Assembly (NCBI GenBank): GCA_014905635.1
Contig: JABVCE010000005.1
Span: 496,001-560,000, forward strand
Length of the DNA: 64,000 nucleotides
DNA from: Scenedesmus sp. PABB004
Taxonomy: Eukaryota
Reading direction: 5' to 3'
Position numbers and translations under genes: made by a program. The notes beneath the pieces were generated by a model. That model worked only from the letters and a program-made list of their open reading frames with translations. It ran no database searches and had not been told where the DNA came from. Shown piece by piece: positions 1 through 63,933 of this stretch; position 1 is the first letter of the stretch, and each line of letters opens with the position of its first letter.

Positions 1-3000
1 GCACGCTGACGTGGGAGAGCACGTCGGGCGCGTCGGGCGTGAGCAGCCCCACCACGCCCTCGGGGATCTCCTCCTCGCCTGGGGGAGAGGGGTGGCAGGG
101 CGGCGGCGGCGCAGGGGGCGCGCGGGCATTACTATTCGGTCGACTTCCCGAGCGCGGCGGCGCGGCGTGGCGGCAGCCCCGCCGCCGCCGCCGCCCCCGC
201 GCGCGCGCGCGCGCGTGCGCCGCGGCGCAGGCGCGGGCGGGCACACGCACCGGTGACGTTGTGCACGACCAGGACGGTGGGCTCGTCGTAGACCTTGTCC
301 TGCACCGCGCTCAGGTGGTCCACCACCTCCACCAGGCCCATCACCTCGTGCGGGCTGATCACCTGCGGTTGGTTGGTCGGGCCGGGAGAGAGGCGTGGGA
401 GAGGCGTGACGCGTGTGGGAGCCGCGGGCGGCGGGCGCGGGCACGCGCAGCGGGGCGAGAGCACGGCACGCGCGTGCACGGCGCGGCGGCGGCGCGGCGC
501 GGCGCACCTGCCACGCGCCGAGCTCGGCCGTCTGGCGCAGGCTGGGCTCGATGGCGCTGAGGACGAGGCTGATCGCAAACGCGGGCCCGCCGCGGACGAC
601 CTCCTCCGCAAAGATCTCGACCGCCCAGGGGTCGCACTTGGCGGCGTTGCCGATCGCGGTCGCAAAGGGGCCGATCGTCGACACGATGCGGTCTGGCGAC
701 CGCGTTTGGGGGGAGGCGAGGAGGGCGGCGGCGGGGGGGGGGGGGGAGCGCGCGCGTGCGGGGCAGTGAGCTCGGCGCGCGCGGCGGCGGCGGGCGCGCG
801 GGGCAGGGGCGCGGGAGCCGCGCCCGGCAGCGGGGCACGTCGCGCGCGCCGCGCCGCACCCGACGTCTCGCTGAGCAGGCGGCGCACGCGGTTCAGCACC
901 GCGACCGCCTGCAGCGCCTCCTCGCGGCTCGGGCGGCCGCCGCTGCGCACGCTGCCGGGCAGGCTGTTCCAGGCCTGGCGGGGGCAGGCGGGGGGGGGGC
1001 ACGTTGGTGGGGCGGGGGGCGGGGCGCATTGGTGGGCGCGCGCGGGCCGCGCCGCCGCCGCGCTGCTGCCGCCGCCGGCGCTGCCACACGCGCTGCTGCC
1101 GCCGGCGCTGCTGCCGCCGCCGGCGCTGCCACACGCTGCTGATGCCACGCTGCTGCTGCTGCCGCGCTGCCGCCGCCGCACGCGCTGCCGCGGCCGCCCC
1201 ACCCACCTTGAGGCAGAAGCAGGCCTCCTCGTTGTTGCCCTGGCTCAGGCACAGGTTCTGCAGCAGCGGGCCCATGAACGCCGCCGCGCCAAAGCCTGCG
1301 CGGGCGCGCGGCCGCGCCGTGAGCCCGCCGCGCGCGCGCGCACGCGCGCGCACCGCCCTCTACCGCCGCCGCCGCGCGCCGCAGCCGCGCCGCCGCCGCC
1401 GCCGCATCCGCACCCGCGCTGCCGACGCCGCGCTCTGCGGCGCCGCGGATGCTGTTCTCGAGCGCGACGTCGAGGTAGAGCAGGTCCCGGTTGCCGGCGA
1501 GGCTCGGCGCGATCTCGGTGCGCGCCTCGACCGCGGCCTCGAGGAAGGGCAGGATCTGGGGGCTGTTGATGTGCGTCGTCACGTAGCCGAGGTACCCGCG
1601 CGCGCCGCCGGGCAGGCAGTTGCCGACCGCCGCGGCCGAGGCCTGCAGGTCGGCGCCTGCGCGCGGCGCGGCGCGGGCGTGCGCGGCGGCGCGGGCGCGG
1701 CGCGCGCTCGGCGCCGCGCGCTCGGGCCGACGTGCGCTCGCCGGCGGACCGCGCGCTCCCAGCGCTGGGCGCGCGCTCCGGGCCGCCCACCCCCCAGGCG
1801 CCGCGCACCCGAGTGCACCGCCTTGAGGATGCCCAGGTAGTTCCTGAACTCCCGGATGAGCGGCTCCTTCTTGCCCGACCCAAACCACTCCGGCTCGCAC
1901 ACGATCGGGCGGTCGAACGACTCGAGCCGCTCCCGCGTGATGCCCGCGTCGCTCAGCACGCGCCAGTACGCGCCGCGGTCGCCGTTGGCCTGCGCGCGCG
2001 CGCGCGCGGGGGCGCGGCCGCGGGCGTGGGCCGGCGCGCGGGCGTGGGCCGCCGGCGGCGGGCCGCGGCGCCACGCCCCTGCCGACAGCTCTGTCCGCCC
2101 GACAGCTCCGCCCCCTCGGCAGCTCCACACAGCAGCACCGTGCGCACGCACAGCGTGCGCAGCACGCGCCCACCCACAGCACGCGCAGCGCGCGCAGCGC
2201 GCTCAGCGCGCAGCGCGCACCTCAAGGAATGCGAGGTAGGCGGAGCAGATGGGCACGTCGTCGGGCGTGGTGTTGTTGTGCAGCTTCTGGTGCCACTCCT
2301 CCATCCAGGTGCCCTTCTTCTCGGGGATGTGGTTCCTGCGAGCGCGGCGCGGCACGCACAGCGCGGCGCGGCGGTGAGCGCGGCGGCGCGCGGCGCGCAG
2401 CGCGGTCGCGCGCGGCGGCGCGCGGCGCGCAGCGCCCGCCCTGCGCCGCAGCCGGCGCGCGGTGTCTGCGCGGCCAAGGCAACAAACACGCGCGGCCGCC
2501 CGAGCTCCCCAACGCTGCACGCCCGGCCGCGCCCGCGTGTGCGCGCGTGTGCGGGCTCTCCCCCTCCGCCTCTCACCGGTGCATGATGTGGAGAATCTCG
2601 TCGCGGATGCGCTGCCCGTCGCCGCCGCGGCCGACGCAGCTGAGCATGAGCCGCGCCCACTCCTGCGCCTCGCCGCTCGTCTTGCCGTGCGCGGCCGCGA
2701 TCGTGTGCGTGAGCCGCGCCTGCGCGGCGGAGAGGATGCGCGGCTGCGTGTTGTAGTTGCGCTGCCACGTGAGCTGGCGCGACGCGGAGTAGCGGAGCCA
2801 GACGTATATGTCTGCCATCGCCTCGGTCGTGTCCACCTCGAAGAAACCGTCCAGCACCTGCGCCCGGCAGACGCGGCGCAACGCAGCAGCAGCGTTGCGC
2901 GCACGGCACACAGGCGGCGGCGGCGGCGGGGCGCGGGGCTCGGGCGCGCGGCCGTCGGGTGTTCGCGCGCGCGATGGGGCGGCGCAGCGTGCGCAGCGCG

Positions 3001-61700: not shown

Positions 61701-63933
61701 GCGCCGCGACCGCCGGCGGCGCGCCCGGCTCGCGGCCTGCGGCGCGACGGTGGGCGCGGCGGGCGGTGGGCGCGGGCGCGGGCGTCGGACCCCCACGCCG
61801 CGCAGCGCGCCGGGGGCGGGCGCTCGGGTCTCCCTCTCGCGCTGCGCCACACACACACCCGCGAGGATGGGTCCCTCAAAGGTCTTGCGAAACTCTGCGG
61901 GGCTGCCGAGCACGCCGGGGTTGGCAAAGTCGACCATCGCAAAGAACTGCACGCCACCAGAGCGGCGAGCGGGGCGGGGCGGGAGGAGCGCGGGAGGGCG
62001 CGCGGCGGCGCGCGCGCGTGAGCGGCTGCGGCGGCGCGGCGGCGCGGCGGCGCGGCGTCCGCCCCGTCCGTCTCCCCGTCCCTCCCCCCGCCTCCCGCGC
62101 CGCGCGCCTCGTCGAGGTGGTTCTGCATCGGCGTCCCCGACAGCAGCACGCGGCGGCGCGTGGGCAGCGCGTCGAGCGCGCGGTTGGTGAGCGTGGCGTC
62201 GTTCTTGAGGCGGTGCGCCTCATCAGCGATGAGCAGGTCCACCGCCGCGCCGGGCGTGGTCAGGCGCGCCGAGTGAAGGCGGAAGGTCTCGTAGCTGCGG
62301 CGCGTGTGGGAGAGTGTCCGAGCGTGCAACGGGCGTGTGATGGGAGCAGAGGGGCGTCGCGGGCGAGCTCAGGCGCTGTCAGCAGGCACGCCGGCAGTCC
62401 CCGACACCCCTGCGCCCCATGCGCCCTGCCCCGCAGCCACGCCGCACCTGATGATGAGGCAGTGATACGGCGCGCGCGGCGCGGTGAAGCGCGCGATGGC
62501 GTCCAGCACGTCGTCGCGGCTGCTCTCGCACAGCGCCAGCGTCCTGCGGCGGCGGCGCGCGCGGCGGCGCGCCGGCTGGGCGGCGGCCACGCCGCCGGCG
62601 GCGGGCGGCGGCGGCGCGCGCGCGGCGGCACAGGCGCGGCGGGTGCGCGCGCCTGCAGCGGCCCTTGAGCCACTTGTCGCACTCGGCGTCCCAGTTGCTC
62701 ACGAGGCTGGTCGGGCAGACGATGATCGCGCGCCGTGCGAGCGGCGACCCGCCGAGCGCCGCGGCGCCCTGCGTGAGCAGCGTCCACATCAGCGAGATGC
62801 CCTGCAGCGTCTGCGCGGCGCGGCGGGGCGGGGCGGAGACGGCGGGGCCGGGGCCGGGGGGCGTGGGCCGGCGGCACACCGTGCCGCGCGGCCGGACGCC
62901 GCCGCCGCCGCCGAGCGCGGCCGCCGCCCTGGCGAGCGCCACTGCGGCGAGCGCCGCCCTGGCGCACCTTGCCCAGGCCCATGTCGTCCGCCAAGATGCA
63001 GCCTGCCGGCAGCGGCGGCGGCGGTGATGGTGTGGCGGCACGGCGGTGAGCGTGAGCTGTCTGGCGGCGCCGGCAGCTGCTGCTGCGCGGCCGGCGCCGC
63101 CGCGCGCTGACGCCGCCGCCGCACCCTGGCCGTTGGGGAGGCGCTGGCCGGTCACGCACTCAAACATGAACGCCACGCCCTCGCGCTGGTGGGGCCTCAG
63201 CCAGCGCGTGAGCATGGGGTCCACCACCACCGGCGCGTCGCCGTCGCCGGCGGCGGCGCCGCCCCCGTCAGCGGGGTCCCACAGCACCAGCGGCTCCACG
63301 CCCGGCGGCAGCGCGAGGTCCTCGGGCGCCGGCGCCGCCGCGGGCAGCTCCGGCGGCGCGACCGGGACGCGCACGGGCGCGAAGGGCTTGGTGGTGCCCC
63401 ACGCGACAAAGTGCTTGCGCGCGAGCAGCCGCCGCCGCAGCGCCTGCGGCCCGCGAGCGGCCGCGGGAACCGGGCGTCAGCCGCGGCACGGGCGCGCGGT
63501 TGCGCGCGCGGCCGGCGTGCGCGCTGCGCCGGGCGCGCGCCGCGCCGCTCACGTCGGACTGCGCCGGCGCGCCGGGCGCGGGCGAGCGGAACGCGCGGCG
63601 CAGCGTCTGCTCGCCCGCCGCGACGCTCAGGTAGCGCGACAGCACGGGCTTGCGCGTCACGTGCAGGCTGCGCGCCGGCGGCGGCGGCGGCGGCGGCGGC
63701 GGCGGCGCGGTGAGCGAGCTGTCGGCGCAGCGGGCTCGCCGCGGCAGCAGCGCAGCAACGACGCACTCGTCTGCCAGCAGCGCACGGACGTTGCGCTCGC
63801 GCCGCGCCTCCAGCTGCTCCTGCGTGGCATGCTCCTCCTCCTCCTGCTCGTCCAGCTCCTTGGTCCGGCGCGTGGTCTGGTGCGGCCGCACGAGCTCCTC
63901 CGGCTCCAGCGCCGCCGCCGCGGACGCCGCCAT
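58785..63933 (-). CDS. RAD54: SNF2-family DNA repair/recombination translocase RAD54, multi-exon
   Basis: [122 protein letters not shown]. The true stop is probably 58785 (see the frameshift finding); 58574 as read. Confidence 0.96.

Follow-up and report, generated by a model that had tools for sequence, protein, structure and literature searches.

The window that we analysed is 64,000 nucleotides of the genome of Scenedesmus sp. PABB004 (assembly GCA_014905635.1, contig JABVCE010000005.1, positions 496,001 to 560,000), in which 18-19 genes with about 137 introns (about 7 per gene) are predicted. The genes include those for glucan-water dikinase (GWD), a HAC1/CBP-type acetyltransferase (HAC1), HOP/STI1 (HOP), AP2 sigma and RAD54, and the subject of this work is the set of their introns that begin with GC and end with AG. 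A preliminary description of the window had listed 14 such introns as restoring the protein frame when spliced at a GC donor, each with an exonic AG before it. We found that all 14 intervals (3 on the plus and 11 on the minus strand) read AG/GC...AG on the strand assigned to the gene. Protein homologues place ten of them exactly where they had been drawn, and the other four rest on coding frames, ab initio parsing and the donor consensus. The list was also slightly short, as two further candidates emerged, at 33447-33595 and 9466-9566.

The G+C content lies between 77 and 81% in every 4-kb bin of the window (about 79% overall), and all six reading frames carry stop-free runs, so that the absence of stops says nothing about coding in this sequence. 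A three-base periodicity in G+C outlines exons of ~100-300 nt with gaps of ~100-250 nt between them. Single-exon queries retrieved homologues of glucan-water dikinase and RAD54, the nearest named ones being those of Monoraphidium and of Tetradesmus obliquus, the latter 88-90% identical over the query exon. These relationships mark the window as nuclear DNA of a chlorophycean alga allied to Sphaeropleales. An Rfam search of the window returned no RNA family, and hence no small nuclear RNA (snRNA) gene within it. When the flanks of the 14 intervals were joined, one stop-free frame was obtained, with a third-position G+C of 0.86-1.0 on both sides, and the joined peptides resemble AP2 sigma, RAD54 and HOP. 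The heptamer AGGCRMG occurs 113 times on the two strands of the window, compared with 152 ± 11 times in dinucleotide-preserving shuffles (100 of 100 shuffles contained at least the observed number), and AGGTRMG is commoner than expected (51 copies versus 24 ± 5). Taken alone, the AGGCRMG motif means nothing in this window.

We assessed intron boundaries with our own local protein-to-genome aligner, which uses BLOSUM62 and affine gaps, allows split codons and charges a single penalty for any intron. Homologues of GWD (13), HAC1 (12), HOP (4, the fourth a fragment) and RAD54 (12) were aligned, and one Tetradesmus protein, P0002, also covers AP2 sigma. Because the aligner invents irreproducible introns in non-conserved stretches, mostly with GC donors (37/44 of the singletons in GWD and 116/137 of those in HAC1), a boundary was accepted only if it was common to most homologues. 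The strict set obtained in this way contains 54 introns in five genes, 44 GT-AG and 10 GC-AG; the extended set contains 57 (46 GT and 11 GC). All ten strict GC-AG introns fall among the 14 listed earlier: two each in GWD, HOP and AP2 sigma, one in HAC1 and three in RAD54. Cutting out the exact interval restored an ungapped match to homologues for these ten and for 33447-33595. The alignments at the junctions are mostly free of gaps within ±8 residues, with identities of 35-94%; at HOP 41086-41234, there are no gaps within that distance and 69% of the residues are identical. At 33447-33595, seven homologues other than the three that give the exact interval take a second GC site, and none of the 12 takes a GT.

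Restricting the donors locally to GT lowered the summed scores by about 20-91 BLOSUM units per homologue. In a control in which any donor dinucleotide was allowed, the GC was unchanged in 34 of 37 homologue-by-locus calls, and the 44 GT introns of the strict set likewise kept GT. Furthermore, Pfam coordinates are contiguous over three of the confirmed junctions, two in AP2 sigma and one in RAD54. At RAD54 62544-62652, the GT alternative would keep 21 nt of the intron. Two GC donors chosen by most homologues were not retained: GWD 5379-5550 was recounted as a GT intron at 5379-5559 and RAD54 61017-61167 as one at 61017-61161, since the closest homologues favour GT at these sites, where the scores of GC and GT are separated by no more than 4-5 units per homologue. 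For orthologous introns, we retrieved 80 metagenome loci that contain a RAD54 exon; of the first 46, the 42 that measure at least 3 kb were aligned to the RAD54 protein of the window. These 42 are distant and mostly intron-poor, and a single intron position is shared, by one locus (L035) only. Together, the protein alignments indicate that the homology-supported GC-AG introns are probably excised as drawn.

GC-AG introns of the window. Scores are those of the protein alignment with the GC donor versus GT donors only; mask cost is the loss in the ab initio parse, in nats, when GC donors are masked; Pfam entries give the domain positions that are contiguous over the junction.
Feature	Coordinates	Strand	Donor	Support	Score, GC versus GT	Mask cost
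GC-AG intron, GWD	2858..3019	-	acgag/GCGCGC, phase 0	exact in 13/13 homologues	3002 versus 2447	26.1
GC-AG intron, GWD	5751..5992	-	tcaag/GCGCGC	exact in 10/13 homologues	1710 versus 1486	14.0
Extra GC-AG intron, HAC1/CBP-type acetyltransferase	33447..33595	-	cacag/GCGCGC, phase 2	exact with the 3 best-scoring homologues; absent from the preliminary description	1590 versus 1364	13.4
GC-AG intron, HAC1/CBP-type acetyltransferase	34177..34338	-	ttcag/GCGAGC	exact in 12/12 homologues	2364 versus 2009	
GC-AG intron, HOP/STI1	41086..41234	-	tcaag/GCGCGG	exact in 3/4 homologues		
GC-AG intron, HOP/STI1	41582..41719	-	aacag/GCGCGC	exact in 3/4 homologues	no GT-only solution with any homologue	
GC-AG intron, AP2 sigma	57809..57945	-	acaag/GCGCGG	exact with P0002 (1/1); PF01217 109/110		
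GC-AG intron, AP2 sigma	58120..58229	-	cggag/GCACGG	exact with P0002 (1/1); PF01217 51/52		
GC-AG intron, RAD54	61499..61605	-	caaag/GCACGC	exact in 10/12 homologues	2439 versus 1491	
GC-AG intron, RAD54	61947..62107	-	acgag/GCGCGC	exact in 12/12 homologues; SNF2-rel_dom 170/171	2907 versus 1811	
GC-AG intron, RAD54	62544..62652	-	tgcag/GCGCGC	exact in 11/12 homologues	2512 versus 2275	
Probable GC-AG intron, alpha/beta-hydrolase-like gene	7971..8068	-	ggcag/GCGCGC	frames, parser, consensus		3.7
Candidate GC-AG intron, gene without Pfam family	9466..9566	-	gccag/GCGCGC	ab initio; absent from the preliminary description		5.9
Probable GC-AG intron, small gene without Pfam family ('lumen protein')	10925..11031	+	tgaag/GCACGG			
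Probable GC-AG intron, Rxt3/HDC1-like gene	18590..18719	+	acaag/GCGCGC	parser, same donor		8.6
Probable GC-AG intron, Sec23/24-trunk-like gene	29642..29745	+	agcag/GCGCGG	parser, exact interval		7.4

The strictly supported introns define a local donor consensus. GT donors read (C)AG/GTGCG, with G at +3 in 43/44, C at +4 in 33/44 and G at +5 in 44/44. GC donors read AG/GCGCG, GCACG or GCGAG: eight have G and two have A at +3, nine have C and one has A at +4, and all ten have G at +5. The local consensus is AG/G[T/C]G[C/A]G, and GC donors fit it as well as GT donors do. The earlier statement that the intronic consensus of the GC donors is weak is thus contradicted; that impression arose because they had been compared with GTAAGT.

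The two classes differ in what precedes the donor. An exonic AG stands before 10/10 GC donors compared with 18/44 GT donors (p = 7.7e-4, Fisher test). Counted by context, GC accounts for 10 of the 28 donors that follow AG and for 0 of the 26 others. These counts show that, within the supported set, GC donors depend absolutely on an exonic AG. In other respects GC and GT introns are alike: the acceptor is CAG in all 57 homology-supported introns, and the median length is 143.5 nt for GC and 139 nt for GT introns, with no difference between the classes. A CTSAC-like branch motif occurs in the last 60 nt of 17/57 introns, compared with 3/57 in a control segment.

Two other identities for the GC-AG introns were considered and rejected. 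U12-type introns are not involved: no donor contains ATCC, and all read GCGCGC, GCGCGG, GCACGC, GCACGG or GCGAGC. Nor do the introns form an Introner-like repeat family, as an all-against-all blastn comparison of the 57 introns returned only matches of ~75-81% identity of the low-complexity, GC-rich type; the top match is between two introns with GT donors, and those with GC donors form no cluster.

Ab initio evidence came from a self-trained Viterbi gene parser that treats the two strands jointly; it replaced a per-strand version that had merged genes and lost plus-strand genes. Of the 54 supported introns, the joint parser placed no more than 38 at their exact boundaries; most misses were shifted acceptors, and two were false GC donors. 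Its use was confined to setting an upper bound and to tests in which all GC donors within 60 nt were masked. Masking cost 6.1-26.1 nats at the ten confirmed introns and 0.5 at the two known false GC calls. The parser picked the claimed donor at 7971, 18590 and 29642; at 10925, it took a GT donor 6 nt upstream. Pfam searches with single exons gave no match spanning the junctions in the hydrolase, 'lumen', HDC1 and Sec23-like genes.

Each of the claimed introns in these four genes has a GT alternative. At 7971-8068, the flanking frames demand an intron length of 2 mod 3, and the mask cost is low; the competitor is an in-frame GT intron at 7969-8057, whose donor GTGCTG has T at +5 and whose acceptor is GAG. 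At 10925-11031, the competitor is the in-frame GT intron chosen by the parser, 10919-11031, with donor GTGAAG and A at +5. The sole nearby in-frame GT donor at 18590-18719 is GTCCGC, and the exon upstream matches Pfam Rxt3; the GT alternative at 29642-29745 is GTCAGC. Among the 54 supported donors, G occupies +5 in 54/54 and +3 in 51/54; GTGCTG and GTGAAG lack G at +5, and GTCCGC and GTCAGC lack it at +3. We conclude that the 7971, 10925, 18590 and 29642 intervals are probably GC-AG introns, less firmly so for the first two, which face in-frame GT competitors. The acceptor of the additional candidate at 9466-9566 differs between parses (9466 versus 9294). As for the Sec23-like gene itself (27746-30615, plus strand), none of its three exons has a Pfam match, and its name comes only from a protein-atlas lead, scored 0.89, that suggests domains of the Sec23/24 trunk or VWA type.

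We next consider how frequent GC-AG introns are; all frequencies refer to the window only. In the five genes with homologues, they make up 10/54 introns of the strict set and 11/57 of the extended set, shares that overstate the rate, as it was their GC donors that brought these genes to notice. The parser converged on 35/137 and 39/140 GC donors from starting priors of 2% and 50%, respectively; these shares are inflated, since at strictly supported introns it erred in 2 of the 12 cases in which it called GC, and elsewhere many of the GC donors that it proposed combine a weak context with a low mask cost. The credible GC-AG introns number 16: the ten confirmed, 33447-33595, the four remaining claims and 9466-9566. 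We therefore estimate the window-wide share at ~16 of ~137 predicted introns, or about 12%. As a floor, the ten confirmed introns over 138 predicted ones give 7%, which differs from the plant average of 1.2% (PMC6310983) with p = 7.6e-6. The roughly tenfold enrichment asserted in the preliminary description is in keeping with these figures.

Our results are best explained, with a probability of roughly 70%, by ordinary U2-type GC-AG introns that have become frequent through G+C bias at donor position +2, so that a change in the spliceosome is unnecessary. Strong G+C bias would keep turning the T at +2 into C, and the C would be tolerated only where the rest of the donor pairs well, that is, with exonic AG at -2/-1 and G/A, C/A and G at +3 to +5. 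Donor positions pair base by base with U1 and U5 according to a scheme based on the canonical snRNA sequences, on which the argument from compensation rests. The lost U:A pair with U1 at +2 may be compensated by the pairs at -2/-1, made with U1 and with U5 loop 1, and selection against C at +2 would then be weak in AG context and strong elsewhere. We read the AG rule as a sharp form of compensation within ordinary U1/U5 recognition, one that need not imply relaxation.

The size of the effect can be gauged from base composition. Intron interiors contain 47.6% C and 6.2% T (7.7:1; G+C about 87%), compared with odds of C to T of 10:18 at +2 of donors in AG context. T at +2 is thus favoured about 14-fold in AG context, a scaled selection of about 2.6, and elsewhere the value exceeds 5.3. 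We entered this into a one-parameter mutation-selection calculation in which genome G+C serves as the neutral proxy and the share of donors in AG context is fixed at 52%. The calculation gives 6.7% for Micractinium conductrix, for which 7.0% is observed, and 5.9% for Chlorella sorokiniana, for which 5.7% is observed (figures cited from PMC6310983). Crude as it is, it indicates that base composition alone is able to carry the enrichment with the machinery unchanged.

Several points weigh against this explanation. The calculation overshoots about twofold for Coccomyxa (3.9% versus 1.7% observed) and for the mean plant genome (2.1% versus 1.2%; observed values cited from PMC6310983), and it cannot reach the 22-56% of Micromonas pusilla, Aureococcus and Emiliania. 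It is also crude in letting genome G+C stand in for the neutral composition and in holding the AG-context share constant. Splicing at the sites is deduced from protein homology, and the five-gene sample is skewed toward genes with GC donors. Finally, 28 sense-strand copies of AGGCRMG lie, apparently unspliced, in predicted coding sequence, which implies that real GC donors need more than the heptamer. Avoidance of exonic AGGCRMG was not seen: synonymous-codon shuffles contained 20.5 ± 2.9 copies compared with the 28, a count that a tandem repeat inflates.

That the GC donors are an artefact, with boundaries misplaced beside real GT donors or with T-to-C assembly errors, is highly improbable overall. 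It could draw on the ubiquity of GC dinucleotides at 79% G+C (as the 113 copies of AGGCRMG illustrate, even though they are fewer than in shuffles), on the irreproducible GC introns that our aligner produces in non-conserved regions and on the two claimed introns with in-frame GT alternatives. However, ten junctions are fixed by homology with donors unconstrained, GT-only solutions are much worse, and random errors would hardly strike ten times at +2 of donors that all follow an exonic AG; for the ten supported introns, this reading is refuted. A biological alternative is that the GC donors are not neutrally tolerated but maintained for their weakness, which would permit regulated splicing or intron retention. 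GC donors are reported to be enriched in alternatively spliced genes of human, nematode and Arabidopsis (cited from PMC2490688), and Emiliania, in which GC donors are the majority, has a high rate of intron retention (cited from PMC4028052). Here, in contrast, they lie at conserved coding junctions of housekeeping genes (AP2 sigma, HOP and RAD54) and share the lengths and acceptors of GT introns, and, of the 11 GC introns with homology support, 9 have lengths not divisible by 3, so that their retention would shift the frame. We consider a regulatory role quite unlikely.

A lineage-adapted spliceosome, changed in the U1 5' end, the U6 ACAGAGA box, U5 loop 1, U1C or PRP8 such that C at +2 is read nearly like T, would account for a donor consensus that as a whole has moved to GTGCG, where 42/54 donors carry C at +4, a base that mismatches canonical U1. 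Such a change could also explain why the algal GC-AG shares of 22-56% (PMC3033335, PMC4028052) exceed what the composition-only calculation yields, and the origin of GC-AG introns is termed 'an enigma' in the cited part of Iwata and Gotoh (PMC3033335). Yet the strict need for AG, with 0/26 GC donors outside that context, means that C at +2 is still costly, T is favoured about 14-fold over neutral even in the best context, and the U1 5' ends of both GC-AG-rich algae covered in the cited part of the same study are canonical (PMC3033335). We therefore regard an adapted spliceosome as unlikely. A still broader possibility is a 5' splice-site code rewritten under GC pressure, in which recognition would extend beyond canonical U1 pairing through altered U1/U6/U5 contacts or an intron-definition signal; the GTGCG consensus, the invariant G at +5, the share of GC donors above 10% and the dozens of exonic AG/GCGCG decoys suggest it, and we hold it to be a quite doubtful reading. 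The preliminary description had joined extreme GC pressure to relaxed 5' splice-site recognition. Its first element agrees with the other algae and with our calculation, whereas the second finds no support in our data and is at odds with the AG rule and with the canonical U1 already reported from other algae.

The explanation by G+C bias, like the counts themselves, matters mainly for gene annotation. If about 12% of donors are GC and genes have about 7 introns, then most multi-intron genes would hold at least one GC donor, and gene finders restricted to GT would shift frames, keep intron sequence or fuse genes. For splicing biology, the window extends a published trend to a GC-richer genome and raises no new question; it does offer a clean natural gauge of what the T at +2 is worth, in that T appears dispensable only after AG. 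Annotated GC-AG/AT-AC introns number 19 of 67,746 in Monoraphidium neglectum and 19 of 33,104 in Auxenochlorella (counts cited from PMC6310983), compared with the 5.7% and 7.0% in RNA-informed annotations of C. sorokiniana and M. conductrix, whose G+C is similar to that of Monoraphidium; the near-zero values probably arise because gene prediction confined to GT donors overlooks such introns in GC-rich green algae.

Several observations were made on individual genes. RAD54 is followed directly by AP2 sigma (57598-63933, minus strand), and the Tetradesmus obliquus model P0002 has both SNF2 and clathrin-adaptor-small-chain domains. The presence of both domain types implies that this gene order is common to Tetradesmus, and P0002 is probably two genes fused by annotation. 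The RAD54 part of the same model contains a duplicated VVQVVVCRLGELQ stretch exactly at the position of the GC-AG intron 61499-61605 of the window; this duplication could be a mis-annotated non-GT intron of Tetradesmus. Both the fusion and the duplication hint at the annotation errors expected from GT-only gene finders. In a predicted tyrosine-phosphatase gene (52938-53445, minus strand), a 39-nt tandem repeat of ~13 copies codes for SPSPDGEARGELR; every copy has a sense-strand AGGCGCG, which the gene model leaves unspliced. A predicted pyridine-nucleotide-disulphide oxidoreductase gene has a long glutamine-rich, low-complexity insertion (QQQEQQQ...) at 24132-24527 on the plus strand.

The GC-AG introns of the window resemble those known from other organisms in some respects and differ in others. 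In human, mouse, fly, worm and Arabidopsis, GC-AG introns account for 0.37-0.87% of the total, and the C at +2, a mismatch in the helix between U1 and the 5' splice site, is accompanied by a better fit of the other donor positions to the consensus, 'apparently compensating' (Sheth et al. 2006, cited part of PMC1557818). The introns described here share with that account the GC start, the AG acceptor, the reinforcement of other donor positions and 3' ends like those of GT-AG introns. They differ from it, as far as the cited part extends, in their share (about 12%, floor 7%) and in that the reinforced consensus is AG/GCGCG and not AG/GCAAGT.

Closer parallels come from algae. Shares of 39.6% in Aureococcus anophagefferens, 22.2% in Micromonas pusilla and 7.7% in Chlorella sp. 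have been published, GC-AG introns being called 'extraordinarily abundant' in high-GC species, and a search for a peculiar U1 in Aureococcus and Micromonas gave the canonical 5' end AUACUUACCUG (Iwata and Gotoh 2011, cited part of PMC3033335). In Emiliania huxleyi, 56% of the donors in 241 curated junctions are GC, 9 of them verified by reverse-transcription PCR, and they are ascribed to a G+C content of 65% (Feldmesser et al. 2014, cited part of PMC4028052); pelagophytes have 14-17% GC-AG introns according to the cited part of a 2024 preprint (bioRxiv 10.1101/2024.10.30.620910). Like these algae, Scenedesmus sp. PABB004 has, as judged from the window, a GC-rich nuclear genome and a GC-AG share far above 1%, for which base composition is held responsible. 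The G+C content of the window (79%) is above that of those algal genomes (64-70%), whereas its GC-AG share is below that of Aureococcus, M. pusilla and Emiliania, and an absolute AG/GC rule is not stated for the GC-AG-rich algae in the cited parts of these accounts.

Among trebouxiophytes, RNA-informed annotations list 7090 major non-canonical introns of 124,435 in Chlorella sorokiniana and 8057 of 114,347 in Micractinium conductrix (cited from PMC6310983). Their share climbs with G+C (5.7% at 64% and 7.0% at 67%), in line with the window; unlike our counts, these pool GC-AG with AT-AC introns, are taken from annotation and concern a different green-algal class. Within the group closest to our subject, a literature search, which did not extend to bioRxiv supplements, turned up no account of enriched GC-AG introns in Sphaeropleales or Chlorophyceae: the genome paper on Mychonastes (72.4% G+C) does not mention GC-AG introns and has 'splice' in its reference list only, and the words 'intron' and 'splice' are absent from a 2025 comparison of Sphaeropleales. 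The abundance of GC-AG introns in algae and its origin in base composition are thus already in print; what is new here is another lineage, and with it the most GC-rich example among the cases compared.

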